Of a DNA stretch of 64,000 nucleotides, positions 619 to 64,000 are shown piece after piece. The position numbers and the translations under genes are program-made. The stretch comes from Nitrospirales bacterium (GTDB lineage: Bacteria; Nitrospirota; Nitrospiria; Nitrospirales; UBA8639), in assembly GCA_029261295.1 (NCBI GenBank), contig JAJDBP010000014.1, forward strand, positions 8,474 to 72,473, in the 5' to 3' direction. Position 1 is the stretch's first letter, and each line of letters begins with the position of its first letter. The notes beneath the pieces are model-generated. The model ran no database searches and was not told the origin of the DNA. It worked only from the letters and a program-made list of their open reading frames with translations.

Positions 619-3348
619 TTGAGGAGAAACACTTTTATGAAAGATGTACTTCAAAAAAATAAAAGAGGTTTCTGGCTCTTAATTGTCATCCTGCTTCTAA
701 CTCCATTCGCCGTCGGAGCTGTAACTTCGCAAGAAGCTAGCATTGAATACCTTAAAGCGGTGATGGATGAATTTCATACTCGCTTTCCGGTCTATGTTGA
801 TGTCAGCTCACCCGGAAACCACTTTCATGCATGGACGAAGATTCCTAACCAATTCGCCACGGTAACTATTAATGGCTCCTCTACCAACACCCCACATGCT
901 GGGGCAACGGCCATACGATGTGAGTTTTTCGTGCCATCGGCAGCCGGATTTGGTGGGTTTTATTTCCAGAATGGGGTGATAACTGGCGACCAATTGTTTC
1001 CCACTCCAAACTTTGGTGAGATTCCTAACGCTGGATTTGATCTCACCGGTGCGACACAGCTCACTTTTTGGGCCCGAGGTAATGCAGGGGGGGAAACGAT
1101 TGAATTTTTTATGGGAGGATTGGGATGGAACCCCGAGACAGGAGAGCCCGAAGAGCCTAACCCAGATTCCGCCCCCGTTGAAAAAATTACGCTGAGTCTC
1201 ACTACCCAATGGACACAATATTCAATCGATCTCTCAAATCTAGATCTTAGTTATGTCCTAGGCGGCTTTGGGTGGGTAGCGAGTGCAGGCCCCAACCCAA
1301 ATGGAGTCGTGTTTTACCTGGATGATATCCAATATGAATTGAACGAAGAACGACAAGAACAACGCCTCAACGAACCCCGGTTCCTCAGAAGCTTTACCAC
1401 AGAACCCCTCCAACCAGAATTTATGAGTCCCGAGGACTTCGACTTCATTCTCCGTAACGTGGCGTTTTCTTATGACAACGCCACGGCCCTCCTCGCGTTC
1501 TTAGCAGATGCCACAGAGGATAGTCTCCGCCGAGCCAAACTTATCGGAGATGCGTTTGTATACGCTTCACAAAACGACCGAGATCCTGACTTTCGAATCG
1601 ACCACCGCATTCGCACAGCCTTTGCCGCCGGCGACATTTCATTGCCGCCAGGATGGGCACCGAATGGATTTCTAGGCACAGTTCCTGTATCAGGAGTCTT
1701 TGTTGAAGAGAGGCAAGAGTTCGTTGAAGTTCAACAGGACGATGTCGACGTAGGCAATAATACTTGGACGATGATGGCCTTAATTGCACTCTACCGAGCA
1801 ACGGGACAAAGTGAGTATCTAGAAACGGCTAAACAAATTGGAACGTTCATTCGCACGTTCAAGAATAACATCGGACAGTTTCAAGGATTTCAAGGTGGAT
1901 TGGAGTGGGAGAGTCCGGAAAACCCAATACTGGTTCGTCGTGCCTGGGCCAGTACTGAACACAATCTTGATATCTTTGCAGCATTCACAACTCTGTATCA
2001 AATTACACGAGACTCATCATGGAAAGTGGATGCAAACCATGCCCGTCTATTTATTGAACAGATGTTTAATTCGCAAACAGGATGTTTCTTCGCGGGGACC
2101 ACAAACCCAAACCTACGGAACGAGGCCAAGGGACAACTTCCTTTAGATACACATTCCTGGACCGTCCTATCCTTAACGGACTCCCTGGACCGTTACCCAG
2201 CGATCCTAAATTGCGCCGAACAAAATCATCGGACAAGTGACGAAGGATTTTCTGGCTTTGATTTTAATGATGACCGAGATGGCGTGTGGTTCGAGGGAAC
2301 AGCCCAAATGGCCCTCGCTTACCAAGTGGCCGGACAACCTTCACCAGCCGATACCTTGCGGCAAGAACTCAGCCGCGCACAAGAAACGCATTTCCCTGGT
2401 ATCGGGATTGGAAGCGGACTCGTCGCCGCCAGCCGAAATGGTGTTACCAGCGGATTCGACTTTCCATTGCTTCGCCGTCTGCATGTCGCGGCTACATCGT
2501 GGAATATTTTTGCCGAAACCATCTTCAATCCGTTTTACGACACCGCACAGGGCCCAACCGGGCGATTGATACTCCCCCCGACAGGATCAGAAATCTCACA
2601 ATCGACCCAAACCTTCCAATGGAACCCCGGACACCTGGTCACCGAATATTGGCTGAGTATTGGAACAAGTCAACAAATGGTTGCGAATGAGCCATGGGGT
2701 GATATTCATTCTCAATCCTATGGCCTCAACCTCTCGGCCCAAGTCTCAAATATTCCCCTCAATGGACAATCACTCGTTGTCAGGCTTTGGTCAAAAATTA
2801 ATGACGGATGGTTATTTGAAGACTACCGCTACACGACCCCAAGCCCTAACGCGTTTACGTTAGATATTGATGGAAATGGAGAAGCCGCTGTCATGGAAGA
2901 TGGGTTGGGAATAGTGCGTTATCTTTCCGGACTGAGGGGCGCAGAACTCACGACTGGAATCATTGATTCAATGGGCACTCGCACAACGGCCGAAGCCATT
3001 GTAGAGTATTTGAATCAAGCCAAACCGGTCATGCTCGATGTAGATGGCAATATGGAATTCACCGCAGAAGAAGACGGACAACTCATTTTACGATATCTGT
3101 TTCAGCTACGCGGCGATGCCCTTATACAGAATGTCATCGGACCCAACGCCACTCGAACGACAGCGGAAGCCATCGAAACCTTCCTCGCAGGCTTCATGTC
3201 TGGAGCGAGCACACAAAGTCATTCACTCCAAAATTCGATAACCCCTACGGATGAGGAACAACCAACATTGCGGCAACGGCACAAGAAAAAGGAACGACAA
3301 AGAAAAGAGCAACGGCCAGCGTCTAGGCATCACAAGGTTCGCCGATGA
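619..3348 (+). CDS. Exported multidomain protein. It has an N-terminal beta-sandwich (CBM-like) region, an (alpha/alpha)6-barrel-like region, two dockerin-like repeats, an S/T linker and a polybasic C-terminal tail.
   Basis: 909-aa ORF. The signal peptide is FWLLIVILLLTPFAVGAV. The probable true start is ATG 637, with GAGGAG at 621-626; TTG 619 is the most upstream start. Dockerin-like repeats are LDIDGNGEAAVMEDGLGIVRYLSGLRG and LDVDGNMEFTAEEDGQLILRYLFQLRG. The C-terminus is RQRHKKKERQRKEQRPASRHHKVRR. The central region (FSYDNATALLAF, GNNTWTMMALIALY, WASTEHNLDIFAAF) only loosely resembles glycosidase-type helical barrels. Confidence 0.8.
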   Translation: MRRNTFMKDVLQKNKRGFWLLIVILLLTPFAVGAVTSQEASIEYLKAVMDEFHTRFPVYVDVSSPGNHFHAWTKIPNQFATVTINGSSTNTPHAGATAIRCEFFVPSAAGFGGFYFQNGVITGDQLFPTPNFGEIPNAGFDLTGATQLTFWARGNAGGETIEFFMGGLGWNPETGEPEEPNPDSAPVEKITLSLTTQWTQYSIDLSNLDLSYVLGGFGWVASAGPNPNGVVFYLDDIQYELNEERQEQRLNEPRFLRSFTTEPLQPEFMSPEDFDFILRNVAFSYDNATALLAFLADATEDSLRRAKLIGDAFVYASQNDRDPDFRIDHRIRTAFAAGDISLPPGWAPNGFLGTVPVSGVFVEERQEFVEVQQDDVDVGNNTWTMMALIALYRATGQSEYLETAKQIGTFIRTFKNNIGQFQGFQGGLEWESPENPILVRRAWASTEHNLDIFAAFTTLYQITRDSSWKVDANHARLFIEQMFNSQTGCFFAGTTNPNLRNEAKGQLPLDTHSWTVLSLTDSLDRYPAILNCAEQNHRTSDEGFSGFDFNDDRDGVWFEGTAQMALAYQVAGQPSPADTLRQELSRAQETHFPGIGIGSGLVAASRNGVTSGFDFPLLRRLHVAATSWNIFAETIFNPFYDTAQGPTGRLILPPTGSEISQSTQTFQWNPGHLVTEYWLSIGTSQQMVANEPWGDIHSQSYGLNLSAQVSNIPLNGQSLVVRLWSKINDGWLFEDYRYTTPSPNAFTLDIDGNGEAAVMEDGLGIVRYLSGLRGAELTTGIIDSMGTRTTAEAIVEYLNQAKPVMLDVDGNMEFTAEEDGQLILRYLFQLRGDALIQNVIGPNATRTTAEAIETFLAGFMSGASTQSHSLQNSITPTDEEQPTLRQRHKKKERQRKEQRPASRHHKVRR

Positions 3349-3370: not shown

Positions 3371-6300
3371 TTAACGATTTTTCTTGGAGGACAAACCGCC
3401 AAGGACCACGCGGAGGAAACCTTCAACAAAATCATCGGGCAAGGTCATGGTGGTGACAGAAGTTGAATGCGCCAGAGACCCGGTTAGGGAAGCAGCCTCA
3501 AATATGTGTCGATCATTTCGTTTGCCTTTTGAAGAGAGATACAAATTAATAGACGTGTTCAGAGAAACATTGGTCGCAGCAAGTTCCACAGTGAAGATGC
3601 TGGAATCATCCAGATCGGAAACGGAAATCGGAATTCGCTTGGACCGGCCAGACTCGATAGCCTTCCCATTAATGGCGACCACCTGAACAAATGGACGTCT
3701 CTGTGATGTCGGTATACCTGCTTGGGTGTGAGGCGCAGATGGTACAAGAGGAGAAGATACCGTCACTTCACTTTCTTCCCCACGAAGAGGCGCACGGGAC
3801 CCTTTATTTTGATTGAGGCTGGCCTCTTGTTTCAATGCCTGAGGATCAGCTAAAGAAAGTGGGGATGATTCCACGGCAAACTGAACAAGAAATGGTTCAA
3901 TTTCATCTGCCGTCGTGCGGCAGCCTGAAGAGTCCACGACCCCCGTTGTCAGATCCGACCCTCGCAAACCGCTCAGAAATCTTGATATCAGCAGACCATC
4001 TGTCATGGGGTTTGCTTTCCCACTGCAATCCACATCCAGCATGACGAGTTTCAAAGGGTCGAGGTAAGACACCACAGCCTCAGAAGTCGTGCGGGTTCCA
4101 TTCACCAAATCCACCACACCATCAACAAGCGCATCCCCTCGTAACCCAAACAAATATCGCAAAATGACTTGACCATCAAAGGGTTCAGAAATCTCTCCAT
4201 TGCCATCCACATCCAAGAAAACTGGAAGTGGCCCGACCGAGGCTGTGAGGGCAACCGAACTTCCGAGAGGAACGCTTGTCCCATCAACAGGGATTTGAGA
4301 AATAACGAACCCTGCTGGAATGGACGCACTGATTTCTGGAGTCACACTAGAAATGGTTAACCCTTCTCCTAAGAGAGTTTGCCTAGCTAAAGCAAGCGGT
4401 TGGTCGATGACATTAGGGGCAAAAGCCAGCGGCGCGGCATTCGGATTAAAAATCATAATGTTATCTAACCAGACCTGACTGTCGACACTTCCCATGGTTT
4501 TTAGTCTAAACTCCAGTTCGACTGTCTGACCGGAAAAGGCTGAAATATCGATTGCATCGCTCGACTCAAGCATAGTGCTTAAATCTTCTGTCCCCAATAT
4601 AGTTGAGATAATGTTTCCATTAATCGAAGTAACAAATATGTCTCCATTGCCTTTTTGAGTAAAATGGAAATCAAATTGCAACCGGGAAAAATCTCCTGGT
4701 ATCACAATTTCAGTTCTAATTGCAGCATCCGATCCTTCTGTAAGCTGGACTACGCTATTAATCCCACTTCCATCGTCGACAACGTTTACCAATGCTTCAG
4801 TTATCCACCCTGGAAGCAGCGGTCTTATTAGTGGAATGCGACTGAAATCTTTTGACCACGCCCAAGGATCTAACCAGCGCTGCCCCATTTGCTTATTACC
4901 AACTAACTGACTCGCAACAAAAACAGGGCCTCGAGGCGCACCATCGCCATCCAAGAACGTTTCTTCACCATTGAGATCCTCAGCTCCCCAGTGGCCAGGA
5001 AAAATCAACCAATCTTTAACATTCCCCCCCTTGCTCTCTGGCCCCGCACCGACACGACGTAGATATTCAACAGATACCCCATTGGAAGAAACCACCGGCA
5101 GATCGCCACGATGAAACTCGATTTTTTCGAGGAACGGAAGCAAGCTTTTATCAGGCCACCTCGTCCGACCTCGCTCTTCGTAGCTCGCATGTCCTCCTAG
5201 CCCAACATAGACTCTGGTATGTGTAGCAATAAGATCAGCTTCTTTTCGTCGATCAACATTTGACCAGGGGATCGTGTCACCACCATCCCCAAAAGGACCA
5301 TCAAAGAAGGCCCCGGAAATTCGAACATGTTGGCCAAAAGCAATACGGTCAGGTTGCCAATTGATACCATCGAAGCTTAGAAATATCGTAATCCCTTCCC
5401 AGTCTCCTTCATGTTCATTGGCACCACCATACTCCTTCCAATTGCTTCGCGGGTAATGAAACCAATAGTTAATTGCCAACTCGTTGGCACCAGTCATCGG
5501 TGGAAAATCTCCAAAGTTTGTCTGGACTGACCCATAAATTTTTGCGGGTATTCCTGATGGCCTAAAAACGTCTAATGGGGACAGGTCAAGTTGTTGATTA
5601 TTGGCACCAGTGACTGCACCATCAAACACATCCTGTCTTGCGAATATTGTTTCGGCATCATAGGGTTGAGGAAATCTTTCAGTCCCAGGAATGACATTAA
5701 CGCCATCGTCAAAAACTAAAGTTGGGGTGAAACGAGCCACGAGTTCATTAAACCCAAGAACCAGCTTTTCTTCTCCATCGACAGTTAGGTTCATTGGGAA
5801 AATCACAGCGGGATTATTATCTGGAAGGTCGGCTACAAATAATGCCTTCAATTCTGCCTCGGATGCCTCAGATCTAAGCAACTCAAACTCAACGCTTTGG
5901 ACACTTCCCAAAGGCGGAACAATAAAACTGCTCACCTGAACCGTATAAAACCCTACATCTAACTTCCCAAGATTCGCTACGACTTCTCCTAAGAAATTTA
6001 TCCCTGTCACGTGCCTTGACTTCAATAGGGTGCCACCATCAATAGTAACATTCACCAATTCCGAGAGATCCCACGGAAGCGGAGCATCGAAAGCGACTCG
6101 CAATACATAATCACTTCCCTGGGATATTGGCAATGCCCAAGTCACATCAAATTGTGGATCACCAATAGTTGCCCACCATCGATCGATACAGGACAACCCT
6201 TGGTTGAATATCTTACTATCAACGATAGAAACAGTGGCTTTACTTGCGGAAATGACAGTCTCATTTCCGATCATGGCCAAACTCAATTGAACCGATTCAC

Positions 6301-20805: not shown

Positions 20806-22617
20806 TTACTTGCGCCGCTTCAATTTTCCCTGACGGAGTCTTGAAGACGTGCTTTTGGTGAGAGGAAAAACCCGAGACCGAGAAGTTGAGGATTTTAATT
20901 GCACATCTTCTTCAACGAGAGCGGAAGGGGACGATTCCTTCCTAGGATCCACTAATAATGATTCCGCTAAGAATGGTTCTGGGAGGGCAAAGGAATCCAA
21001 AAACGTTTCAACGAGTTCTGGAGTGTTGCGCGGAGCTGTGGGATCTACTAGACCTGCAATGAGAGCAGGACCTCGAATACCGGAGAGGTACCGATACACC
21101 ATTTGTCCATCTTGCATGGGAGAAGAAATCCCGTTCCCATCGACATCACCATAGGCTTGCTTTGCCTGGTCTAACCGGGTTTCCAACAAAGCGGGACATT
21201 CAGCGGGATTGGTGGGACAGACCTGGGAGAAGTCCACGATACCTTCAAACAACCCCTCTCCCCGTAGCCCAAAAAGATAACGAATAAAGAGTTGAGCATC
21301 GATCGATGATGTTGCATCGCCGTCATCATTGGTATCGAATGTGACGCCCGAGCCAATGCTATTGAGGGTACCATTCGAAGCAGCATAGCCTAAGACGTAT
21401 AATTCTCCTGCTTCATCTTCGCCAAAGCCACTCACCGAAATACTTTGAGGCAACGGGTCCGGAGCACTCCAATTTCCCAGAACATCTTGCCGAATCGCCC
21501 ACAGTCTTGCAAAGACAAAATCGCCATAAAAGTAGATGCCATCTAACTGTGGCAGCTTTGTCCCACGATAGCGATAGCCTCCTGTAATGGATCGGCCTTC
21601 ACTATGATCGTATTCCAGAATAGGTAAGGTGAGCGTCCCATGATCTACCGTCATACAATTAGTTACAGGATTAAAGCAATGCAACCCCTCCATATTGCGC
21701 CATCCGTAATTCTCTCCGCCCTCGCTCGACGCTCGTTGAAAATTAATTTCTTCCCAACGATCTTGCCCCACATCACCAATGAACAGGTCACCCGTTTGTC
21801 GATCAAAACTAAATCGCCACGGATTGCGTAATCCGAAAGCCCAAATTTCTGGAAGTACATTCGAATCATCGACAAACGGATTATCGGAGGGAATGGCATA
21901 CGGCACACCGCTATCGACATCAATGCGTAACATTTTCCCCAACAACTGTGTGGGACTCTGTGCCAAATTCCCAGAATCACCAGATCCCCCACCGTCGCCC
22001 ATCCCAATGTAGAGAAACCCATCTTGCGGACTAAATTGCAATTGCCCTCCGTTATGGTTGGATTCGGTATCAAGTTGATCTACTGTGAGAATGGTCACAC
22101 CAGAATTGGGATCCGCCGCATTGGGATTACCCACAGACACCGTGTATCGCTCGACCACTGTATCCCCAGAGGTATTCGTGTAGTTTACAAAAAAGAATCC
22201 GTTCGTCTCATAGTTGGGATGAAACGCCACGCTCAATAACCCTTGCTCTCCGCAGCAAGAAATCAACTGGCTAATATCAAGAAATGGGGTCGGCAACACT
22301 TGAGAACCGTCAAAGATGACAATTTCTCCACCCTGCAAGGTAACAAAGAGACGCCCACTCCCATCACCGGCATGGGTCACGGCCACCGGACGTGATAAGC
22401 CTGCGGCTTTGGATTCGAGAGTGATTAAGGGAAACGGCGTAAGCGCATATACAGGCGAACGATGGCTTTCTGCAACAACAAAGAAAGAAAGAAGCGGTAA
22501 AACGATAGAAGCAAGATTGAGTCGAATTAAGAATATGGACATTGCACAATTCCAAAAAAATATTTTTAAGGCTCTTACCGAAAACACAGTCCGGACCCAC
22601 CTTTGGGTTACATTCAA
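20806..22617 (-). CDS. Exported PQQ-dependent sugar (glucose/sorbosone) dehydrogenase-like beta-propeller with a C-terminal dockerin-like pair and a polybasic tail
   Basis: 603 aa. GSDH landmarks are GDGSGRLFVTLQGGEIVIF, GEQGLLSVAFHPNYETNGFFFVNYT, NHNGGQLQFSPQDGFLYIGMGDGGGSGD, LLGKMLRIDVD, YAIPSDNPF, EIWAFGLRNPWRFSFDRQTGDLFIGDVGQDRWEEINF and GENYGWR. The dockerin-like pair is FDTNDDGDATSSIDAQLFIRYLFGLRG and GDVDGNGISSPMQDGQMVYRYLSGIRG. The protein ends SRLRQGKLKRRK. The start is TTG 22617 or ATG 22542. Confidence 0.85.
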   Translation of the reverse strand: MNVTQRWVRTVFSVRALKIFFWNCAMSIFLIRLNLASIVLPLLSFFVVAESHRSPVYALTPFPLITLESKAAGLSRPVAVTHAGDGSGRLFVTLQGGEIVIFDGSQVLPTPFLDISQLISCCGEQGLLSVAFHPNYETNGFFFVNYTNTSGDTVVERYTVSVGNPNAADPNSGVTILTVDQLDTESNHNGGQLQFSPQDGFLYIGMGDGGGSGDSGNLAQSPTQLLGKMLRIDVDSGVPYAIPSDNPFVDDSNVLPEIWAFGLRNPWRFSFDRQTGDLFIGDVGQDRWEEINFQRASSEGGENYGWRNMEGLHCFNPVTNCMTVDHGTLTLPILEYDHSEGRSITGGYRYRGTKLPQLDGIYFYGDFVFARLWAIRQDVLGNWSAPDPLPQSISVSGFGEDEAGELYVLGYAASNGTLNSIGSGVTFDTNDDGDATSSIDAQLFIRYLFGLRGEGLFEGIVDFSQVCPTNPAECPALLETRLDQAKQAYGDVDGNGISSPMQDGQMVYRYLSGIRGPALIAGLVDPTAPRNTPELVETFLDSFALPEPFLAESLLVDPRKESSPSALVEEDVQLKSSTSRSRVFPLTKSTSSRLRQGKLKRRK

Positions 22618-40950: not shown

Positions 40951-43119
40951 CTATCGTAGCGAACGCTTCCTTTCCCTTTTCTGTCGTTTAGCATGCCCTT
41001 TTTTCTTTCCACGCTGAGTTGGAGGATCTTGAATTTCCGGCTCAGACGTGATGGTAAGCTCTAAACTGTCAGTCAGCGCGGAATCCGGGGATGCAAGATC
41101 TACGGAGGTGCTCACCGCCTCACTCGTGCCGGCCGTTGTCAGCCGACTTCCGGTCGACTCAGCCCCAGGCAGAAACCCACTCAGAAATGCCACAATTGCG
41201 GAGGCCGTGGTCCGCGTCGCACCCACCCCCAGCCCATTGGCCAAGACACTGTCGCTCGTGATGCCAAACAAAAACGCGGTGATAATCTTGCAATCAAACG
41301 TATCTGCCGTGCCATTCCCATCGGCATCCAGCATGCCCAGCGGCTCCACCCCCAGGAGATACGTCATAATCAGTTGCGGGTCGGTGCGCCCGCCGGTAGA
41401 GTCCACCACCCCGGCTGCCACATCCGCTGGATCGGTAATCGCCGGATCCAGATACCGGCAGATCATCGAGCCATCCCACACATTGGTTTCGCTATTAATA
41501 TCAATATCAAAAGTCATCCGTTGGAATGTTTGTTGGGAAACGGGATGAATGGGGTTCAAGGCGAGGTCAAGAACATTGTTTACGGTCAGGGTGTAGCTCA
41601 CTCCTTCAGCAAGAGGAGTTGTGGCAAGAAGGACCGTCACGCCATCAGATTGAAGAGCTGCCTGAAGGATGGATATTCCAGGATCTATAGAGAAGTTACT
41701 GGCGGTCTCAGCACTGCCTCTCTCCAATGGTTCGCTAAAAGTCACGGACACGAGGGTTGGATTACCGGCAGCCATCACATCCAAGATCGTTGGCCCAGAA
41801 ACATCTGATCCTGTGGGAACCAATTTCAGCACTTCCCCTGTTTGCCGCCCGATATACAGCTCTCTGTCTTCATCCTCGCCCCAGGTGATATCGCGTTGGG
41901 GAATAAGCTGCGCACCCGTCGGTTCGATAGCAATCAATTCCAGCTCCCCCGTATTGATATCCATCGCCACCAATTCGGCTGCCACAAAATCAAAGAAAAT
42001 ATATTTACCAAATAATGGTGGCAGCGCTGACCCTCGATACACAAAGCCGCCTATCACAGACCCGAACGCCTTGGTGGTACCATTGTGATCATATTCCGCT
42101 AACGGTGGGGTGAACGCTGGATTAGGTGAAGGATCAACTGTCGCATTCCCACTCACTGGGTCCCAAAGAAAACTCCCCTCCTTCAGATTCCATCCATAGT
42201 TTTTTCCCAACTCTAGGCGCAAAATGGATTCAATCGTGAAATCTCCATTCGTGCCCGTGTACATATCTCCCGTCAGACGATCAGAGGAAATACGCCAAGG
42301 ATTACGAACACCCCAAGCAAATATTTCCGGCACATTTCCGCCTGCTCCATCCGCGAAAGGATTATCAAACGGAATCGTATAACGACCATTGGGTCCAATA
42401 GTATCGACATCGATGCGGAGAATACTTCCATAAGGATTCGTCGTTTGTTGGCCAGTCGTGTGATGAGGAGTCGGCGTGCCAAATGGCGTCGCGCCGCCAT
42501 CGCCAAATGACACATACAAATAACCATCACCGCCAAACGCCAAATCATTCATATTATGTCCGCCGTTAGGCTGGTGCACACGCAGCAATTCTCGTTGAGA
42601 ATCTTGGTCAAACTGGTCAGGATTTGTCGCGTCGACTTGAAATTCAAACAACACGTTATCAAATGCAGAAGACGTATCATCTTGGGGAGGGCTGTAGTCT
42701 GGCGTAGCCCCGTTTGGAACGGCTTCGCCGGAAATCACGTAGAGTTTGCCATTAGTGGCGTAATCTGGATGAAAGGCCATGCCCGACATCGCAAACCCTG
42801 AAGGGGCTGCTGGAATATTCAGGAAGGGTGAGGGACGCAGTGCGCCGTCTTTGAATATACGAATGATCCCGTTTGGCGAGACAAGAAAAAGTCGTCCGCT
42901 CCCATCCCCTGCATTCGTAATATCGAATACCGCACTGGGGTTAACGGACACCACCTGTTCCAATTTGATGGTGTGAGGTCCAAGCGGAATATCGGGCAGT
43001 AGATTGTTTCCATCCCCGACCGCTCTGGCTGACACCGGAGCCAGGCTCACTATCAAGCCAATAACAACCAGCAAGAATTTCAGGGATGAGGTATAGAATG
43101 GCATAGCTATCTTCTTCAA
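40951..43119 (-). CDS. Exported PQQ-dependent sugar dehydrogenase-like beta-propeller with an SbsA-Ig-like domain, a dockerin-like pair and a polybasic tail
   Basis: 722 aa. GSDH landmarks are GDGSGRLFLVSPNGIIRIFKDG, MSGMAFHPDYATNGKLYV, HNMNDLAFGGDGYLYVSFGDGG, YGSILRIDVD, YTIPFDNPF, EIFAWGVRNPWRISSDRLTGDMY and KNYGWN. The Ig-like segment is TLVSVTFSEPLERGSAETASNFSI. The dockerin-like pair is FDIDINSETNVWDGSMICRYL and LDADGNGTADTFDCKIITAFLFGI. The protein ends QRGKKKGHAKRQKRERKRSLR. The start is TTG 43119 or ATG 43104. Confidence 0.85.
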   Translation of the reverse strand: MKKIAMPFYTSSLKFLLVVIGLIVSLAPVSARAVGDGNNLLPDIPLGPHTIKLEQVVSVNPSAVFDITNAGDGSGRLFLVSPNGIIRIFKDGALRPSPFLNIPAAPSGFAMSGMAFHPDYATNGKLYVISGEAVPNGATPDYSPPQDDTSSAFDNVLFEFQVDATNPDQFDQDSQRELLRVHQPNGGHNMNDLAFGGDGYLYVSFGDGGATPFGTPTPHHTTGQQTTNPYGSILRIDVDTIGPNGRYTIPFDNPFADGAGGNVPEIFAWGVRNPWRISSDRLTGDMYTGTNGDFTIESILRLELGKNYGWNLKEGSFLWDPVSGNATVDPSPNPAFTPPLAEYDHNGTTKAFGSVIGGFVYRGSALPPLFGKYIFFDFVAAELVAMDINTGELELIAIEPTGAQLIPQRDITWGEDEDRELYIGRQTGEVLKLVPTGSDVSGPTILDVMAAGNPTLVSVTFSEPLERGSAETASNFSIDPGISILQAALQSDGVTVLLATTPLAEGVSYTLTVNNVLDLALNPIHPVSQQTFQRMTFDIDINSETNVWDGSMICRYLDPAITDPADVAAGVVDSTGGRTDPQLIMTYLLGVEPLGMLDADGNGTADTFDCKIITAFLFGITSDSVLANGLGVGATRTTASAIVAFLSGFLPGAESTGSRLTTAGTSEAVSTSVDLASPDSALTDSLELTITSEPEIQDPPTQRGKKKGHAKRQKRERKRSLR
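41165..41517 (-). repeat. Copy A of a ~350-bp near-duplicated C-terminal dockerin-like module (partner at 43440..43785)
   Basis: The protein segment FDIDINSETNVWDGSMICRYLDPAITDPADVAAGVVDSTGGRTDPQLIMTYL...GMLDADGNGTADTFDCKIITAFLFGITSDSVLANGLGVGATRTTASAIVAFLSGFLPG matches the neighbouring gene. There are long identical DNA runs, for example aatcttgcaatcaaa and gtgccattcccatcggcatccagcatgcc versus gtgccattgccatcggcatcaagcatgcc. Confidence 0.8.
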
Positions 43120-43214: not shown

Positions 43215-44363
43215 TTAACGGCGTCTCGTTTGTGTTCGCTTGCTTCGTTTATGACGACTCTTCTTCTTTGCACTCGACGGCTTCGTGACCTTTACTGGCT
43301 CGATCGTCTGGCTGATTAGAGGCTGCTCCAGCACAATCGAAGCTGTCGTTTCCGACGTAAGGGCGGAAGCCAGCGATTGAACATTCGAGGGAGTTGAGAC
43401 GGTCACTGCTTCCGGCGTACTCACCGCCCCACCCATGCCTGGCAGAAAATCCCTGAGAAAAGCCAGTAACGCATCAGCCGTTGTGCGAGTGGCACCCGAT
43501 CCCAGCCCATTGGCAAATAAACTATCACTCGTGATGCCAAACAAAAATGCCGTAATAATCTTGCAATCAAAATGATCCGATGTGCCATTGCCATCGGCAT
43601 CAAGCATGCCCCGCGCCTCTGCCACCGACAAGTATTCGGTAATTTTTTTGGGGTCCGGACGGCCGCCAGAAGGATCGACGAGCCCTGCTCCTACTTGTTC
43701 CGAATCCGTGATGGCAGGGTCCAGATATCGACAAATCATGGACCCATCCCACACATTCCCCTCGCCATTTAAATCAAGATCCCAGGATAGCACCAAGGGC
43801 CGCCATGCTGTTTCCACGCCATAGCTAATAGACCCGGATTGGTTTCGAAAACTGATCCAGCCCGTGTTCTCACTCCAAGCCCGACCATTAAAATCTCCGG
43901 TGGCGGGATCAATGGTCACCCCATAGTTTTTTGTCGAGCAAGCGTTGGTATTGCTGCAGGAAAAACTAATCCAACCGACGTTTTCACTCCAGGCATAACC
44001 AGCAAGATTTCCTGCCCCATCATTGGTTACGCGATAGTCCCGAGATAGACACGTGCGATTATTCAAACACGACAAACTCACCCAACCCGTGTTCTCGGAC
44101 CAGAGATAGCCGGACACCCCATCATCTTCCACAAACATGCCCGGGCCGCCATCGCCGCCCGGTTCGGCATTCAGCCAACCGGTGTTTTCACTCCAGGCAT
44201 ATTGCGCCCCACTATCATCCGGATCAATATTGTCACTGGCCAGCGCCAGAGAACCTGACAGGCCCAGTACCAAAACTGCACTAAGCACCACCTGAATCCC
44301 ACATTGTTTTGAATGAGTCATGATGCCCTCCGTCTTATCAAACGATTTTTGTTCACTCCACAT
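43215..44363 (-). CDS. Exported protein with 4x W-S-E-N-x-G-W repeats, a dockerin-like pair and a polybasic tail
   Basis: 382-aa ORF. The probable start is ATG 44321, preceded by ACGGAGGG. The signal peptide is VVLSAVLVLGLSGSLALA. The repeats are YAWSENTGWLNA, YLWSENTGWVSLSC, YAWSENVGWISFSC and RAWSENTGWISF. The dockerin-like pair is WDLDLNGEGNVWDGSMICRYL and LDADGNGTSDHFDCKIITAFLFGI. The protein ends SSAKKKSRHKRSKRTQTRRR. Confidence 0.8.
   Translation of the reverse strand: MWSEQKSFDKTEGIMTHSKQCGIQVVLSAVLVLGLSGSLALASDNIDPDDSGAQYAWSENTGWLNAEPGGDGGPGMFVEDDGVSGYLWSENTGWVSLSCLNNRTCLSRDYRVTNDGAGNLAGYAWSENVGWISFSCSNTNACSTKNYGVTIDPATGDFNGRAWSENTGWISFRNQSGSISYGVETAWRPLVLSWDLDLNGEGNVWDGSMICRYLDPAITDSEQVGAGLVDPSGGRPDPKKITEYLSVAEARGMLDADGNGTSDHFDCKIITAFLFGITSDSLFANGLGSGATRTTADALLAFLRDFLPGMGGAVSTPEAVTVSTPSNVQSLASALTSETTASIVLEQPLISQTIEPVKVTKPSSAKKKSRHKRSKRTQTRRR
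43440..43785 (-). repeat. Copy B of the near-duplicated C-terminal dockerin-like module (partner at 41165..41517)
   Basis: See copy A. By eye the two copies are about 75-85% identical at the protein level over ~115 aa, whereas the N-terminal parts of the two genes are unrelated. Confidence 0.8.
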
Positions 44364-49908: not shown

Positions 49909-52164
49909 TTGACTTATTTCATGGCTTTAATAAGGATAGGGGCAGTTGGGGGCACGAATGCTTGGGGCTTTTTGCTCCCCCATCAGGAGACCCGGGATGG
50001 ATACCGTTCCGGGTCTGCCATTTCAAAACGAAATGCCTCATGGTTTCCCATCCCCTCATCAACACCAAGGAGCCACGACATGCTTGTCACACCCAGCCTA
50101 TGCCGTACCCCACGATCTTCTGTTTTCATTCTGATGGGACTCATCTGTTTGCTGCTCACCACCTCACTGGCTTTCGCCAAAAAACCCACGACGGCCACGA
50201 ATGATATTGACGGCGATCGAGTGGTGAATCCCATGACCGATGCGCAAATCATTTCGCGGCATGCGATGGGTCTACGCGGCCAAGCCATGGTAGACGGGGT
50301 GGTCAACCCGGCAGGTACGCGCACCGATCCACAAGAAATTGAAGCTTATCTGGATGCCAATGCCGTGGCTCCTGATGAGTTCCTGACAATTTCGGAAGTG
50401 CTGGTGGATCTGGTTAATAAAACCTTGACGATTACTGGCCGCAATTTTCTGTCGGTCACCGACGCTGAAGTGACACTCGGCACGGATGCCGTGCCCCTGA
50501 GCCTGGCAACCGTACCAACAGATACCGAGATTGTGGCGAACCTTCCGGCAGGACTCGCGGATGGCGATTATTTATTAGCGATGTCTACAGGGGAAGCCCC
50601 CAGTCAGAATGACAGTTATTCCCTCACTATTGGCGAAGGTCCAGTCGGACCGGAAGGTCCTCCCGGCCCCGAAGGGCCACAAGGGATTCAAGGTGGACCG
50701 GGACCGCAAGGTCCAATTGGGCCACAGGGGCCCGAAGGCCCCTTAAACCCTAACGTCTTAACGGAAAGTAATAACACCGCCGTGGGATTCAATACCTTGT
50801 CCAGCAACACGACGGGTAGTTCCAACACCGCGTTCGGAGCAGAGGCCTTGAGTGCGAATACAACGGGTGATGACAACACCGCCCTGGGAAGAAATGCCTT
50901 AGTCGCCAATACCATGGGGACACTCAACACGGCCGTGGGGTCCTCAGCCTTGCGCAAAAACACCACGGGCGGTAACAACACCGCTGTGGGAACCTTCGCC
51001 TTAGGAGTCAATACTACGGCGTTAAACAATACCGCTGTGGGAAAAGAGGCTTTAGGTGCCAACACAACCGGCGGTAACAACACAGCTGTGGGATCTGTTG
51101 CTTTGCGTAACAATACCACCGCCTTTAGCAACACCGCTCTGGGAACCGCGGCCATGAACCTTAACACGACGGGCAGTAACAACACTGCCATTGGAGCATT
51201 TACTTTACTCCTTAATACTTTAGGGGATAGCAACACCGCTCTGGGAACCGCGACCATGAACCTTAACACGACAGGCAGTAGTAATACTGCCATAGGAACA
51301 AGTGCCTTAGCCGCCAACACCACGGGGAATCAGAACCTCGCTGCGGGATCCTCTGCCTTACGCACCAACACCACGGGTGATAGCAACACCGCCATGGGAG
51401 ATCAAGCCCTGCTTTTCAACACCACAGGTCGTATCAACACTGCCGTGGGAGATTCCGCCTTGAGCAGCAACACGACAGGGATCGACAATATTGCGGTTGG
51501 AATTAGTGCCGGAACAAATCAAACGACAGGAAGTCACAATATCTACCTTGGAAATTTTGGCGTTGCCGAAGAGTCAGGACACATGCGTCTTGGTCAACCT
51601 GGCTTCCAATTCCAAACATTTATGGCTGGCATTCGGGGAGTGACAACTGGCGTCAATAATGCAGTTTCGGTCATGATTGATTCCGCTGGACAACTTGGGA
51701 CGGTTTCCTCTTCTCGTCGATACAAAGAAGACATTCAGGATATGGCCGAGGTAAGTGCGCGGATACTCCAATTGCGACCAGTCACGTTTCGCTATAAAAA
51801 GGCCTTTACTAATGAAATAAAGCCCATCCAGTATGGCTTAATCGCTGAAGAGGTGGCGGAGGTCTATCCCGATTTGGTGGTCTATAACGCGAAAGGCCAC
51901 GTCGAAACGGTGCAATATTATAAATTGATCCCACTCATGCTGCATGCCGTGCAACAACAAGAGACACAGTTGCAAGAGGAACACGACACCAATCGCCACC
52001 TGCTCTCGCAACTCCAAGAACAAGCAGAAGAACTGCAAGATCTCCGTTCAGCACTCACATTCGTACAGAAGCAGAATCGCCAACTGCAAGATCTGAGGGC
52101 GCGCCTTGTCAAATTGGAATCGCAACTCGAAACTCGTTCATTCCTGCAAGCGCAATTGCCCTAA
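49909..52164 (+). CDS. Collagen-stalk exported protein, head type C. It has the same N-terminal module, a collagen helix, about 19 copies of a 14-residue tail-fibre/YadA-head-like beta-helix repeat, a peptidase S74 intramolecular-chaperone auto-processing domain, and a coiled coil.
   Basis: The ORF is open from TTG 49909. The probable start is ATG 50080 (AAGGAG at 50066-50071), giving [33 protein letters not shown]. Landmarks:
- Dockerin-like repeat: [53 protein letters not shown].
- IPT-like segment: [22 protein letters not shown].
- Collagen tract: [36 protein letters not shown].
- Head repeats: NTA(V/L/I)G..AL..NTTG...
- S74 motif: [12 protein letters not shown]...LRPVTFRYK...[19 protein letters not shown]...[11 protein letters not shown]. 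Confidence 0.85.
50632..50739 (+). repeat. Collagen-like G-X-Y tract (about 12 triplets)
   Basis: Translates to [36 protein letters not shown]. Confidence 0.9.
50770..51555 (+). repeat. About 19 tandem copies of a 42-bp (14-aa) repeat encoding NTA-x-G-x2-AL-x2-NTTG-x2
   Basis: The translation reads [74 protein letters not shown] and so on. The antisense 211-aa ORF 50688..51323 is a shadow of this periodicity. Confidence 0.9.
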
Positions 52165-54557: not shown

Positions 54558-57500
54558 TTATGAAGGAAGAAATTGCGTCAGGAACAGTTCAATTTCCGTG
54601 GTCGTATCACGTACCGCTCCTTGACCAATGAGCCCTTGGGTCATCGCGTCGCCACGTAGGCCAAAGAGAAAGCGCAGAATAAGCATGCCATCGATCTGCT
54701 CTTCTACTAAACTATTCTGATCGACATCCAACATGGTGGTCCCGCTGGCATCGAGATACATGACTATGGCCTCTGAGGTTGATCGTATTCCTTGGGTATC
54801 AACGATTCCTGCAATTAAGTCATGGCCGCGCAACCCCTTCATATAGCGGATGATGAGATTCCCGTCCGTCATCGGATCGTCCACTCCGTTCCCATCCACA
54901 TCCAAGGTCATCCGGGTAAAGGTGGCTGAACAATTCAGGGCCGTCGTTATCTGCACTTGTCCGTCAGAACAATCGGGATCGCCAGTCCAGCCTTCAAACA
55001 TCGAAAGCAGTTCCGGTTCAGAAGTGAATTGCACAAACGTGTTGGCGGGAAATGCCCACGTGCACGTTCCAGCCGCGCATGACAGCCCCGAAGGGTTGCT
55101 CATGACCAAGCCGCTGCCATCCCCTATTATCGTCATTGTCAACGGCACATGAACGGGCGTCGAGACCGATGATGCATTATTGGACTCATTGGAGTCCGCC
55201 CCAAGCAATTGCACGGTGGCCGTGTTTGTGACAAGCCCAGCAACGGTCGGCGTGGCATTGATGGAAATTGTAGCTGAAGCACCTGCGTGTAACGCCCCTA
55301 ATTGACATTCCAGAGTACCCACACCTGTACAGGTTCCTTGGCTCCACGTCACCGTGCCTAAGGTCAGACCGGCAGGCAACACATCCTCGACCCGTACTTG
55401 AGTGGCCACTTCCGGCCCCGCATTGGTTACGACGAGGTCATACGTTGCTTGCTGCCCCAAGACCATGGGATTGTGCGACACGGTTTTCGTTATCGACACA
55501 TCCGCTAATCGGCCAGGACAGGACACCCCAGCTTCAATGACAAACGATTCTTGGGGAGACCTATCTCCTTGCCCATTGCTGTTCGCAAGCATCCCCATAC
55601 CTCGGCAGGCAAAGACTTCCCACAGCAAATCCTTATCCATCTCCCCGCTTGCCTGATCCGCAGCCAAGATACCATCCCGAGCATCGAGCATCGAAGGATT
55701 GGCCGGAGTAAATGTCAAGCCATCAAGAATGACTTGCTCTGCCCGTGCCCGGCCGAGAGTGTCTCCATAGGTATCAATCAAGTTCTGGCGAATATCCCAC
55801 AGCGTGGCCGACCAAATTTCCCCATCGCGGTGCACTTGACAGCCCGTGGAACAAAGGTCCCCGTACGTCAGAGGATTTTGGTTGATGGCATATTTTCTGA
55901 GACCAATCAATGGCTTACCGGTGAGGTATTCGCCAAACACCGGATCTTCGCCCGTATGCGCCGCAAACCAATCTGACCATCCTTCTCCCAACGCCCCGCT
56001 TTGAGTACCAAAGAGGGTACAAGTCGATGTCGGGCCACCCACTAATCGGCAAGATACCCCATGACTATATTCATGCACGATAATGTCTCGACTGAAGGCC
56101 AAATCAATATTGCGAAATTGCGGTGTGCGCCCCACTCGTAAATCTAAACGAGGCTTACTACTTGTGGAAGAAGAATCGGCCGGGGTAAAGAAAAAGGCAT
56201 TATTATGCTGGTTGAGATCCCAGCGATCCTGAACATCAGTATGTACTTCATCATGTTCAAACCCACCGTTGCCAAAATTATCGGCTTGAAAATTTCCTGC
56301 TTCTTCATCAAAGCCCAAGTGGTAAAAATAATCATGCGCCCAATTGACATGATAGAACGCATTCGTTAACGCCGCATCAAGGTCGGTATCGACATCGGCC
56401 CCATTGCTTAGTTGATACGCATTCTGAAACGGAAATTCAAAATGACCATCAAATTCCGCAGGGCTATAGCCCAACGCATTTGAGGCATCTCGATCTTCCT
56501 GCACACAGGCATTATTCCCCCGCAATGAAGAAAACACACCAGGTGCAGTAGCTTCTAGCCAGCCCTGGGGAGAAACCATGAGGTCACCCACAAAGGATTG
56601 TACGGTCGCCGCACCAGCATCGGGATGGTCAGGAAAGACAAGCCCCTGAGGTTGAGTGAACTGCACCAGATTTGTCCGTACTAACACCTGGCCGGTTTCG
56701 GCATCAATGAACAATCGATAGCGGGCATGCCAATCATGGTGAAATCGCACATCCCAAGCTATTCGCGCCTGCGAGGGAAGCGGCACAATAACCAGCCCGG
56801 CTTGATGAACCATCCCAGGAATACCCATGGCCGGAAGGGCGAACTTCGTGAGTCGAGTAGAGCCGTGTGGCCCATCCACCACTTCTGGCCATCCCATTAA
56901 TTCACCTGTGACATGTTGAACACCCAACAGCACCGCTTCCGCTGCTGATATTTTTGGCTCTACTCTCACATCTGAAAATGAGGACGGAATATTTCCAGCT
57001 ACGTTAAGGACACGTCCGCGTTTATTCACATCTACTTGGAGTGCGGCATCAACCACGGGAATATCTTGCCAATACCATTGAAAGGTAACATGGGTCACCC
57101 CCAACCGTTTCAATGTATGCTCCCCACTGATCTTCCAACTCAGGTTCCCATCAGAAGGTAGGCCTAAAAGATCGGCATGCCGACGAAGAAATCGGCGTGC
57201 CCCAACACGAGCCTTTCTATACCGCTTTCGTGATAATAATTTTTTCGGATGCCGCAAAGACCGCAACTGCCCCGTTCCCCGATTCCACCGAGCTTGCACA
57301 TTTCGGCCAAATTGCAATTGCAACGCTTGCATGGTTTGCTCATAACGTTGAGCACTCATTCCCTGACGAGGAGGCCTTTGCTGTCGAACTTCATGCAAGA
57401 GATTAATATTGGGCAAGGGGTTATTGGGAGAAGCCAGGGGAGCAAAAAGCGCAGAGAAAGAAGAAGGAAAAACCGTCGATTGTTCACAGACGGCAGAGTA

Positions 57501-57587
57501 AGCTGGAGTTTGCTGGATAAATCCCCATAGCAGGCAACCGAACACGCCACTAATAACCCATCTCAAATTTAACCGAAGCATTTCCAT
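54558..57587 (-). CDS. Secreted M36 (fungalysin)-family zinc metalloprotease with an FTP-type propeptide, a DUF11 repeat domain, a beta-sandwich and a C-terminal dockerin-like pair
   Basis: 1009 aa with the signal peptide WVISGVFGCLLWGFIQQTPAYSA. The zinc motif is IIVHEYSHGVSCRLVGGP (HEYSH at 56061-56075, reverse strand). The downstream ALGEGWSDWFA is characteristic of M36. The DUF11 segment is ADVSITKTVSHNPMVLGQQATYDLVVTNAGPEVATQVRVEDVLPAGL. The dockerin-like pair is LDVDGNGVDDPMTDGNLIIRYMKGLRG and LDVDQNSLVEEQIDGMLILRFLFGLRG. The protein ends at the module (LFLTQFLPS) with no basic tail. Confidence 0.85.
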   Translation of the reverse strand: MEMLRLNLRWVISGVFGCLLWGFIQQTPAYSAVCEQSTVFPSSFSALFAPLASPNNPLPNINLLHEVRQQRPPRQGMSAQRYEQTMQALQLQFGRNVQARWNRGTGQLRSLRHPKKLLSRKRYRKARVGARRFLRRHADLLGLPSDGNLSWKISGEHTLKRLGVTHVTFQWYWQDIPVVDAALQVDVNKRGRVLNVAGNIPSSFSDVRVEPKISAAEAVLLGVQHVTGELMGWPEVVDGPHGSTRLTKFALPAMGIPGMVHQAGLVIVPLPSQARIAWDVRFHHDWHARYRLFIDAETGQVLVRTNLVQFTQPQGLVFPDHPDAGAATVQSFVGDLMVSPQGWLEATAPGVFSSLRGNNACVQEDRDASNALGYSPAEFDGHFEFPFQNAYQLSNGADVDTDLDAALTNAFYHVNWAHDYFYHLGFDEEAGNFQADNFGNGGFEHDEVHTDVQDRWDLNQHNNAFFFTPADSSSTSSKPRLDLRVGRTPQFRNIDLAFSRDIIVHEYSHGVSCRLVGGPTSTCTLFGTQSGALGEGWSDWFAAHTGEDPVFGEYLTGKPLIGLRKYAINQNPLTYGDLCSTGCQVHRDGEIWSATLWDIRQNLIDTYGDTLGRARAEQVILDGLTFTPANPSMLDARDGILAADQASGEMDKDLLWEVFACRGMGMLANSNGQGDRSPQESFVIEAGVSCPGRLADVSITKTVSHNPMVLGQQATYDLVVTNAGPEVATQVRVEDVLPAGLTLGTVTWSQGTCTGVGTLECQLGALHAGASATISINATPTVAGLVTNTATVQLLGADSNESNNASSVSTPVHVPLTMTIIGDGSGLVMSNPSGLSCAAGTCTWAFPANTFVQFTSEPELLSMFEGWTGDPDCSDGQVQITTALNCSATFTRMTLDVDGNGVDDPMTDGNLIIRYMKGLRGHDLIAGIVDTQGIRSTSEAIVMYLDASGTTMLDVDQNSLVEEQIDGMLILRFLFGLRGDAMTQGLIGQGAVRDTTTEIELFLTQFLPS

Positions 57588-58179: not shown

Positions 58180-61100
58180 ATGGAACCTTTCACCACCAAA
58201 ATTGACAACAATGTATCAACTTGGAATAGGTTAAAACGGCGGGCTCAAGCAGCTATGCGGCGGCGGCAGAGTGCCATCGTCGGGGTAAACTCAAACCGCG
58301 CTCGATATCGTTTGGAATCATTAGAGCCCCGCATTCTCTTAAGTGCAGATCCCATACTTCCAGTGGAGTCCGAAGATCTCGCGACCCCTCTGGTTATAGA
58401 AACAAACCCAGAAGAACCCACGGTTACGTTCGAGGAAAGCGCGCTCACGTCAACCGGACAAGCGCTCACGGGTGCGGAATCGTTAGACATTGATGCCAAC
58501 ACAGCCGCCACTGAAGCCGATGGTGAGCTCATTATTCGCTATCTGTTCGGCTTACGGGACGACGCCCTCACCAGTGGGCTTGTCGATTTAGCACAAGGGT
58601 TGCGCACTGATTCGCAAGACATCGTCGACTTCCTGAACCCTCTCCTGCCGACCACCCCTGGCGTGGATGCCTTGCTGGATGTTGATGGGGACATGCAAGC
58701 CAACCCGATGACCGATGGGCAACTGATCCTTCGCTTCATTCAGGGACTGACGGGCACCGAGCTCACGACTGGCGTCGTCAATTCACTTGGCAACCGAACC
58801 GATCCTGTCGAGATTCACGACTTCCTTACGCAGTTTCTGCCCGTCATCATTCCAACTGTCATTACCGCCAATCTGGCCAACGACACCGGGTCGAGTGCCA
58901 CTGATGGTATTTCTACGGACCCCACCATTACCGGCTCCATTTCCGATCCCAATATCTTGACTGTCTTTGAGGCGGGCTTCGACACGACACCCCTTGCGAA
59001 TTTTGTGGATCTCTTGAGTTTGGTTGATCCCGTGACTGGCCTGTTTAGTCTTACTTCACTTGACTTGGACACGATTAATGGAGGGCCGCTGGGTCAAGGC
59101 CCGCATACCTTACATATTCATGCCACGAATTCCAGTGGCGGGGACGATCTTTTTGATTTGGCCTTCACCTTTGACTCCATGGCTCCCCTCATCAATTTAG
59201 ATAATCCGACAGAGGGAGGATTACTTGCCGAAGAGAGTCGAGTGACCGGTATTGCCGACCCAACCGGCTCGACATTGGCCACCTTGACCTATGCCTTTGA
59301 TGGCGGGACGGACACGCCCATCCCCTTCAACGCCGCAACCGGCAGCTTAGACCAATTACTCAACCTGTCGACGTTGGCAGCGGGCGGTCATACGCTGACG
59401 ATTCATGCCATGGATATTGCGGGCAATGAAGCCACGGAAGTCTTGAATGTCAATCTCCCGGCGGTGATTCCCTTCGCGATTACGGCAGTGACACCGACTG
59501 AGAATCTCAACAATATCGGCACCACCTTCCGGCCTCAGGTCTTTTTCTCGCGAGCAGTCGATCCGGCCACGCTCAACAACACCAATTTCTTCGCCACCGA
59601 CAGTGCCGGGCAACCCCTGGCTGCCACCATTGTCCCTGGAGAAGACGGGCAGTTTGCATGGTTGTTTTTCGATGCGCCATTGCCTGGCGCCTCCACGGTT
59701 ACTGTGCACATTGACGGCTCGGGGATTCTCGCCGCTAGTGACGGCCAAGCATTGGACGCCGACGACGACGGCAACCCAGGAGGAAGCTTCCAATATAGCT
59801 TCACCACGGTCAGTCTTGCCCCGGTAGCTAATACCACCTTGTCTGGTCGCGTCGTGGATCCCGGCCCGGATTTGATTCCGATGACCAGTGACGATGTCGA
59901 AGCAGGGCCGGATGGCCTGCTCCATACCGACGATGACATCTTTCTGTTTCCCGTCGCAGGCGTGGAAATCTTTATTCTGGGGCTAGAAGATCAAGCCGTC
60001 TTCACGGACGCCAATGGGTTGTTTCAACTCACCTCGGTACCAGCCGGCAACGTCAAAGTGGCGGTCAATGGCTTAACGGCCACCAATCTCCCCGCCGGCG
60101 TCTTCTTCCCCGAAATGGTCATGGATGCCACGATGCAGGCGGGCATGGATAACGCGGTGATGCCCGGGATGGAGGTGGTCTACCTCCCGCGTATTCTGTC
60201 GCAAAGTTTACAACCCATTAGTGACACGGACCCAACCATGGTGGGCGTCGATGCCATGACGGCGCCCAACCTCACCGACGAGCAGCGGCAGTTTTTAACC
60301 TTGGAAGTGCAGCCCGGTAGTCTGGTCGGGATGGATGGGCAGACCCTTCCAGGCGGCACCGGCATGGTGGGCATCAGCACCGTGCCGCCGGAGTTAGTGC
60401 GAGACATGTTGCCGCCCGGGTTACTGCAACATACATTCGATATCACCATTCAAGCGCCCGACACCGCCGTTTTCGACACGCCGTTGGAACTGACCTTCCC
60501 GAACATCTTTGAATCCGCACCGGGCACACAACTCTTCTTCTTATCGTTCGACCATACCACCGGGTTGCTGGTCATTGAAGGCACGGCTACGGTGTCGGCG
60601 GATGGCTTGTCCGTCACGACCGATCCCGGGCAAGGCATTACGAAGCCAGGGTGGCACGGCTTGACGCCGCCGGGACCGGGAGGAGGAGGCGATTTACCAA
60701 GAGGCCCCAATGGCCCGAATGGCCCGAATGGCCCGAATGGCCCCAACGGCCCCAACGGCCCGAATGGAACCATTCCACCAGGGGGTTCTGACCCTTACGA
60801 TATTGAAGTGATCTTTCCTGATATGAGCCTCACGGCTGCACAACAAACGATCATTCTGGATGCGGCAGCGCGGTGGGAAGAAGTGATTGTCCTCGGACTA
60901 CCTAGTGTGACCATTGCACAAGAGGATTTTGTTGATTTTAATATCGACACCTTTGGGCTGACCATGGACCTGAACGTGGACGACCTGACCGTCTTCGTGA
61001 CCGCTAACAACACCGATGGCGCGGGAAACAATCTGGCCAGCGCAGGAGTCAGAGTGATCCGTTCCGCAACAAATCTCCCAGCCGTTGGAGCCTTTAGAAT

Positions 61101-64000: not shown

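Follow-up and report, generated by a model that had tools for sequence, protein, structure and literature searches.

A dockerin-related 54-residue module shared by unrelated exported proteins of a Nitrospirales bacterium belongs to a very large bacterial family

In a 64,000-nucleotide stretch of DNA from a Nitrospirales bacterium (contig JAJDBP010000014.1, positions 8,474 to 72,473; the whole stretch is here called the window), 11 open reading frames (ORFs) carry 19 copies of a single module of ~54 amino acids (aa), distributed as eight tandem pairs and three single copies. A first-pass annotation of this DNA had described a non-catalytic, terminal element shared by unrelated exported payloads, and our analysis supports that description: the feature is real, was correctly described and sensibly interpreted, and is not unique to the locus. 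We lean, at slightly better than even chances, towards reading the module as a Ca2+-dependent terminal docking tag, with the tandem pair as its functional unit.

Results

An initial regular-expression scan of the window in six frames found DxDGNG and RYLxG cores at the positions claimed by the first-pass annotation. We then built a hidden Markov model (HMM) from eight seed copies and ran it over the 791 stop-to-stop segments that make up the six frames; where about 19 copies in at least 11 proteins had been claimed, it returned exactly 19 in 11, within a few bases of the earlier positions. Per-copy E-values range from 1e-27 to 9e-5, and every other segment has E >1. Pfam scans confirmed the payloads that had been named (propellers, an M36 protease, a PKD/Calx giant, fibres and adhesins) and gave the domain assignments that follow.

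Tandem pairs lie at or towards the C-terminus of several of these proteins. ORF 619-3348 (+), with a weak GH127-like region below the Pfam cutoff, carries its C-terminal pair at 2860..3195 (E 1e-27 and 4e-27), and in the 1959-aa PKD/Calx-beta/PASTA protein of ORF 3371-9250 (-) the pair (3878..4216; E 8e-27 and 4e-26) stands ~170 aa from the C-terminus. The M36 metalloprotease with DUF11 encoded by ORF 54558-57587 (-) has its pair at the extreme C-terminus (54570..54905; E 3e-25 and 3e-27). Near the C-terminus of ORF 20806-22617 (-), a GSDH/pyrroloquinoline quinone-type dehydrogenase, lies a pair (20989..21339; E 9e-19 and 5e-10) whose first copy is degenerate in its second half. Divergent pairs occur near the C-termini of a GSDH plus Big_5 protein (ORF 40951-43119, -; 41173..41511; E 1e-7 and 9e-7) and of a WSENTGW-repeat protein (ORF 43215-44363, -; 43446..43784; E 4e-7 and 9e-5). 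The N-terminal half of the latter consists of four ~35-aa repeats with the core [YR]-[AL]-W-S-E-N-[TV]-G-W-[ILV], which have no Pfam or NCBIfam match.

Five tagged proteins (619-3348, 3371-9250, 20806-22617, 40951-43119 and 43215-44363) continue beyond the pair into an S/T/P/E-rich linker (S/T/P in ORF 619-3348) and a strongly basic K/R tail, for example ...RQRHKKKERQRKEQRPASRHHKVRR, without a transmembrane segment. The database relatives P0069 and P0143 have similar C-terminal ends. This K/R tail may bind polyanions.

Single copies stand on the three collagen proteins. In ORF 35707-37455 (+) the module lies at the mature N-terminus (35800..35961; E 9e-16) ahead of a collagen G-X-Y run and two lamin-tail domains; in ORF 37568-38698 (+) it is again at the mature N-terminus (37661..37822; E 6e-17), followed by a collagen run and a C-terminal Hcp-like domain; and in ORF 49909-52164 (+) it lies near the N-terminus (50200..50361; E 6e-18), before TIG, a collagen run, fibre repeats and a Peptidase_S74 chaperone domain. 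The type VI secretion Hcp-like domain of 37568-38698 (+) thus sits behind a signal peptide, the module and the collagen run, and a stand-alone Hcp-domain gene follows downstream at 38776-39444 (+). Hcp is normally cytoplasmic and not Sec-exported.

N-terminal tandem pairs occur in two giants, the 3207-aa product of ORF 22814-32437 (-; pair at 31829..32164; both copies E 1e-24) and that of an ORF beginning at 58180 and continuing past the end of the window (+; 58483..58836; E 1e-17 and 2e-19). Both contain Big_5, PPC and M8-like regions, and both carry the identical string LEPRILLSAD, at 32297-32326 (-) and 58321-58350 (+). The pairs had been placed directly after this string; in fact the first module starts exactly 44 residues past it in each giant. 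Because the string is identical and the spacing equal despite differing linkers, these giants appear to share a fixed N-terminal architecture. The giant from 58180, the sole one scanned against NCBIfam, matches NF012209 (LEPR-XLL) at 28 bits against a cutoff of 17. Judged by eye, nine tagged proteins have N-terminal hydrophobic signal-like segments.

The 19 window copies align to the consensus LDVDGNGxxxxxxDGxLIxRYLxGLRGxxLxxGVVDxxGxRTxxxxIxxFL, with D2 and D14 invariant and D4, R41 and L51 nearly so; the period is 54 aa, and a pair spans ~115 aa. A loop-helix part, L-D-[VI]-D-G-N-G-x-[AV]-D-A-L-T-D-G-L-L-I-x-R-Y-L-F-G, is followed by an extension of ~30 residues, in which a short helix leads through a loop bearing a near-invariant Arg to a last helix closing in I-x-x-[YF]-L. 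Across 348 copies from database relatives, D2 is conserved at 100%, D4 at 98%, N/D6 at 91%, G7 at 81%, D14 at 99% and G15 at 93%; D2, D4, D14, G15, R20 and R41 all fall between 93 and 100%. Loop positions 1, 3, 5, 6 and 9 are thus D, D, N/D, G and D, and the final acidic residue comes at position 13, not 12. A division of the first and second modules of a pair into distinct subtypes was tried and dropped, since held-out classification was 66% correct.

When the 11 whole tagged proteins were scanned against Pfam (E <=0.01), no match fell on the module. With isolated module regions and a threshold of E <=10, Dockerin_1 (PF00404) was the sole related family, at 12.8-18.4 bits against a gathering cutoff of 22.9 (18.4 bits for the module region of ORF 20806-22617), and no EF-hand family appeared; nor did the NCBIfam models, sorting-signal models included, match the module. 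By this comparison with Dockerin_1 and EF-hand models, which the first-pass annotation had suggested as a check, the module is not an already curated family. Dockerin_1 was detected in 6 of 76 relatives (E <=0.001), of which P0032 and P0169, the two individually listed, exceed the cutoff, and a precomputed PF00404 match exists for 2 of 120 close database relatives. Nearly all of these close relatives are unnamed or "hypothetical protein" in their source records, and larger ones are named by payload, such as "DUF11 domain-containing" or "PKD repeat protein".

Profile searches place the module nearest to dockerins. We searched all PDB sequences with module profiles built from 19 and then 104 sequences; the solved structures matched were dockerins only, followed by calmodulin. 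The Xyn10B/XynY dockerin gave the best matches (1ohz_B and 2ccl_B; E 1.5e-3 to 1.7e-3), and the ScaB adaptor, a GH9 dockerin and the Clo1313_0689 double dockerin were matched as well. The dockerin matches, which align only with a one-residue gap, span profile positions 2-23, where the calcium loop and the first helix lie; the calmodulin match is weak (E 0.3-9) and confined to the loop. With hhalign, an alignment of the pair compared with four dockerin segments (three from the PDB alignments and the Pfam-positive dockerin of relative P0085) reached a probability of 92.5% (E 5e-7), dockerin repeats 1 and 2 falling on modules 1 and 2 and the rest of module 1 forming a 21-residue insertion. The single module scored 78% against the same dockerins, and none of 40 column-shuffled controls exceeded 1.9%. 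At the level of sequence profiles, these results support the likeness to dockerin/EF-hand calcium-loop-plus-helix units that the first-pass annotation had proposed.

The idea that a second calcium-loop unit, in degenerate form, makes up the latter half of the module was ruled out, as hhalign of the two halves gave a probability of 2.7%. Given the PDB profile matches, the hhalign result and the lack of a hidden second copy, each module appears to be one dockerin-type repeat with its own ~30-residue extension, and the pair one stretched dockerin. The two tandem calcium-loop-plus-helix repeats that define a dockerin are present in the pairs and not in the three single-copy proteins. Because its score falls below the cutoff and its repeat length, spacing and domain size all differ, the module should not be filed under PF00404.

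Structure prediction gave confident models. AlphaFold2 modelled the C-terminal pair of the M36 protease with a mean predicted local distance difference test score (pLDDT) of 95.5 and a predicted template modelling score (pTM) of 0.88, and a single module with a pLDDT of 94.5. The single-module model, another check suggested at first pass, contains loops and helices. In each predicted module a loop is followed by a 12-residue helix, a 4-residue helix, a second loop and a helix of 9-16 residues, which we take to be the element order of a dockerin (loop, helix, short helix, loop, helix). Two tandem modules are predicted to form one compact helical domain of ~115 aa.

To define the extent of the family, we ran an exhaustive profile search over 1.84 billion representative proteins clustered at 50% identity, which returned 6,366 clusters at E <=1e-3 and 4,020 at E <=1e-10. 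In the best 150 of the 6,366 clusters the copy number is almost always even (2, 4, 6, 8 or 10), and the module is C-terminal in 97, near the N-terminus in 30 and internal in 23; up to five pairs can be arrayed in one protein, as in P0032. Separately, a degenerate DNA motif for D-G-x4-R-Y-L-F-G-L-R-G matched at least 120 loci in a species-level genome collection. The full module is present at 119 of the 120 loci listed; among the 141 segments from these loci, 117 have a pair, and 93 of the 141 lie within 15 residues of the stop codon. Many C-terminal copies end in a conserved ...SLMP-COOH.

Hosts among the matches listed include Porticoccaceae/SAR92, Cellvibrionales, Thiotrichales, Methylococcales and Arenicellales, together with Burkholderiales, Casimicrobium, Planctomycetes, Desulfatiglandaceae, Magnetococcales and Thermoanaerobaculia, and Hormoscilla cyanobacteria with many module loci per genome. 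Payloads in the 76 relatives comprise Ig-like, cadherin-like, Calx-beta, DUF11, PKD, lectin, peptidase and beta-helix domains, adhesin-like or enzyme-like and differing from protein to protein. Burkholderiales locus L038 repeats the arrangement of the window's collagen proteins, with an N-terminal single copy and a collagen-like run. The family is therefore very large and spread across phyla (Proteobacteria, Cyanobacteria, Planctomycetes and others). The density of copies had earlier been taken to suggest a dedicated system; the density itself stands, at 19 copies in 64 kb, but a family of this size and spread is not specific to the locus.

Ten database relatives, proteins or fragments (P0059, P0062, P0065, P0074, P0075, P0080, P0085, P0121, P0145 and P0165) have an acidic run followed by ...EEELLIALPG at the C-terminus, an ending that may be a further C-terminal motif of pair-bearing proteins. 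Full-length giants among them, such as P0121 and P0145, open with MSLAQLFYLKETFRE... and carry the pair near the N-terminus.

We also looked for a cohesin partner. Searching the window by phmmer with the two cohesins of P0085 gave no match (best E 0.08). Pfam detects cohesin in 2 of the 76 relatives. In P0085, five PKD domains are followed by a cohesin (1341-1490), a classical dockerin (1495-1553), a second cohesin (1571-1725) and the module pair (1730-1841), and the fragment P0065 has the same cohesin-then-pair junction. A single cohesin sequence served solely to pick candidates; P0085 was subsequently confirmed by Pfam, and a match in P0153 is unconfirmed. Ten further candidate relatives were checked for cohesin, all with negative results. 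Since cohesins share a polypeptide with the pair in some relatives, a cohesin-type receptor may be encoded elsewhere in the source genome. Recurrent clusters of neighbouring genes were considered as a conserved gene and rejected, being antisense ORFs or Hormoscilla repeats.

Other genes of the locus

Seven tandem paralogous genes at 44399-49290 (-) encode secreted proteins of ~200-230 aa with Lcl_C (PF07603) and a common N-terminal GNLEPPxSAVNGSGNPxxTTQTQPSWDQ segment. The array lies directly upstream of two module-bearing genes on the same strand, and in one database relative Lcl_C is fused to a module pair. PEP-CTERM ends are found on the products of 10402-11064, 33155-33949 and 34467-35234 (all -), a DUF642 protein, an unknown protein and an M10 matrixin-like peptidase. 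Because none of these three proteins carries the module, two different shared tags coexist in the locus. Further genes, with no established link to the module, lie at 13807-14586 (+), 14592-15956 (+), 18786-20543 (-) and 39586-40815 (-); they encode a C39-peptidase-domain protein, a signal-peptide/HTH_17 protein with a C-terminal half that looks beta-barrel-like by eye, a pentapeptide-repeat membrane protein and a Macro-domain protein. For the NDH-2 gene of the window, the closest homologues with a name come from Nitrospiraceae/Nitrospirales MAGs (54-56% identity) and from a Phycisphaerae MAG (57%).

Discussion

Because the module is non-catalytic and terminal, occurs on unrelated exported proteins and has a calcium-dependent docking module as its sole detectable kin, we favour the docking-tag reading, and from the same observations we infer calcium binding, docking and the kind of receptor involved. 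Placed at either terminus of exported proteins whose payloads are unrelated, the Ca2+-stabilised pair would tie these proteins to a shared receptor, either on the cell surface or within the extracellular matrix. Each architecture would place an anchor at one end and the payload at the other, enzymes being tagged C-terminally and giants carrying the tag at a set distance behind the LEPR-XLL N-terminus. On the collagen proteins, one copy at the mature N-terminus would precede the stalk, and trimerisation would gather three copies. Functional single-repeat dockerins provide a precedent for such single copies (PMC12270676). No gene of the window would encode this receptor, for which a cohesin-like beta-sandwich module from another part of the genome is a candidate.

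A number of observations weigh against this reading. As the first-pass annotation had remarked, no cohesin-like partner is visible in the window: Pfam detects none in ORFs of at least 150 aa, in agreement with the phmmer search. Co-occurring genes had been suggested as a route to a receptor and do not point to one, as no gene family recurs in the ~8-kb stretches around the motif at the 120 loci listed, and the neighbours on two long module-bearing contigs are unrelated. No window copy reaches any Pfam or NCBIfam cutoff, the predicted calcium loop has 13 residues, one more than the canonical 12, and the second half of the module resembles nothing known. Foldseek against the PDB returned no significant neighbour for the pair or single-module model; the top match of the pair was the double dockerin 8x39_A (E 0.96, TM-score 0.36, not significant), and the best match of the single module (E 2.8) was not a dockerin. 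The modelled fold, confidently predicted, appears to have no solved counterpart. Foldseek is weak on small helical domains, so this null result does not disprove a dockerin-like core. The misfit with classical dockerins that had been noted at first pass thus holds in the sub-cutoff Pfam scores, the 54-aa period and the Foldseek result. Further, the 348 copies keep L12-T13 and R20 across phyla, at the positions by which dockerins discriminate between cohesins, a pattern that seems to fit a conserved ligand better than species-specific cohesins.

The main rival, which we consider unlikely, dispenses with a protein receptor: the pair would anchor its bearers by binding an anionic polymer of the envelope or matrix, such as lipopolysaccharide, capsule, alginate-like exopolysaccharide or extracellular DNA. 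A window without cohesin and related loci without a conserved neighbour, among those examined, speak for such anchoring, and the conservation of the would-be contact positions suggests one common ligand. The K/R-rich tails of the five tagged window proteins are possible polyanion binders, and some module-bearing genome records bear the name of a wastewater plant or a lab-scale reactor, or are metagenome-assembled genomes (MAGs) of Hormoscilla. Hormoscilla are sponge symbionts. However, no carbohydrate-binding family matches the module, its sole detectable kinship is to a protein-protein docking module, and some relatives carry cohesins and the pair on one polypeptide.

Pairs might instead bind each other with calcium's help and so cross-link the proteins that carry them, building a surface layer or matrix that needs no separate receptor. 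The high local density (11 tagged genes in 64 kb), the arrays of up to five pairs in one protein (P0032), the single copies on proteins expected to trimerise, with L038 as a further example, and the weak difference between modules 1 and 2 of a pair (the 66% held-out classification) are all compatible with self-assembly. We nonetheless find it improbable: in the AlphaFold2 model the pair by itself forms a closed compact unit (pTM 0.88), and classical dockerins are not known to self-assemble in this way.

We likewise see a small chance that the module, rather than being an anchor, serves as a signal for secretion or sorting, or as a nucleus for calcium-triggered folding after export, in the manner of RTX repeats or type IX C-terminal domains. 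Most copies do lie at the extreme C-terminus, many ending in ...SLMP-COOH, and the window has another C-terminal tag, PEP-CTERM, on three other proteins. Yet about a third of the best representatives have the module N-terminal or internal, and the window proteins seem, by eye, to have ordinary N-terminal signal-like segments, both of which count against a secretion signal; genes for secretion or sorting do not recur beside the module, and NCBIfam sorting-signal models do not match it. The notion that the motif reflects chance or low complexity rather than a real domain is already refuted by per-copy E-values down to 1e-27 with no background matches, by the 4,020 clusters at E <=1e-10, by the full module at 119 of the 120 loci listed from the DNA motif and by a pLDDT of ~95.

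A wider proposal, possible in our view but doubtful, is that the extended pair belongs to a cohesin-free surface-display or matrix-assembly system widespread in Gram-negatives. Its receptor, a conserved component other than cohesin, would be a polymer of the envelope or matrix or a protein family that has escaped recognition, and the binding surface would be the ~30-aa extension with its invariant Arg. Thousands of secreted proteases, dehydrogenases, adhesins and giants carry the module, in marine Gammaproteobacteria, Betaproteobacteria and Burkholderiales MAGs (some named for wastewater or lab reactors), Hormoscilla, Planctomycetes and other phyla. With a family model, a large share of bacterial surface proteins would be better annotated, and the identity of the receptor would show by what means many Gram-negatives retain enzymes and fibres at the cell surface. 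Being small and switchable by calcium, such a docking pair could also find use in protein engineering.

Comparison with known systems

The closest known counterpart is the type I dockerin (PF00404), for example that of Clostridium thermocellum Xyn10B/XynY (1OHZ/2CCL). Both have a calcium loop followed by a helix with R-Y-L and two units per functional domain, and both are terminal, non-catalytic and borne by secreted proteins with varied payloads. They differ in that type I dockerins consist of ~22-aa repeats with a short linker in a domain of 60-70 aa, whereas the module has a 54-aa period and a pair of ~115 aa, with a 13-residue loop and an added helix-loop-helix containing an invariant Arg in each repeat; its payloads are non-cellulolytic, its hosts Gram-negative, and its locus here has no cohesin. 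Calmodulin-like EF-hands are defined by a helix-loop-helix with a 12-residue loop and are recognised by Pfam EF-hand models, none of which matches the module.

Two other dockerin arrangements bear on the pair and the single copies. The Clo1313_0689 double dockerin (PDB 8X39) likewise packs several calcium-loop units into one larger domain, but from four classical repeats instead of two extended ones (TM-score 0.36). The group-2 dockerins of Ruminococcus flavefaciens are functional single repeats with one calcium loop, and one cohesin can bind two such units (PMC12270676); unlike the module, they are truncated classical dockerins of a true cellulosome and have no ~30-aa extension.

Dockerin-like modules on non-cellulolytic Gram-negative proteins have been noted before, mostly as predictions (PMC6461901; bioRxiv 10.64898/2026.03.19.712371; PMC2386152). 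Non-cellulosomal cohesin-dockerin tethers have been proposed as the 'planctosome' of Planctomycetes (PMC6461901) and for Cag_2037/Cag_2038 of Chlorobium chlorochromatii (bioRxiv 10.64898/2026.03.19.712371), each itself a prediction. Like the family described here, they place dockerin-type modules on peptidases, adhesins and giant Ig-repeat proteins, with lamin-tail, TSP3 and Ig-like domains in the same proteins and a proposed role in surface holding. Their modules, however, are recognised by standard cohesin/dockerin models and a cohesin partner has been identified, whereas the window module escapes those models and no partner is seen.

PEP-CTERM offers a parallel of another kind, as one short shared element on many unrelated exported proteins of a genome. 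It is a motif plus transmembrane helix cleaved by exosortase, whereas the module would be a soluble folded domain, found at N-termini as well and without a transmembrane segment. Our literature search found no description of the extended 54-aa module. Set beside these systems, the module is not categorically new; what is new is its extended 54-aa repeat architecture, the size of its family and its escape from the Pfam and NCBIfam models searched.

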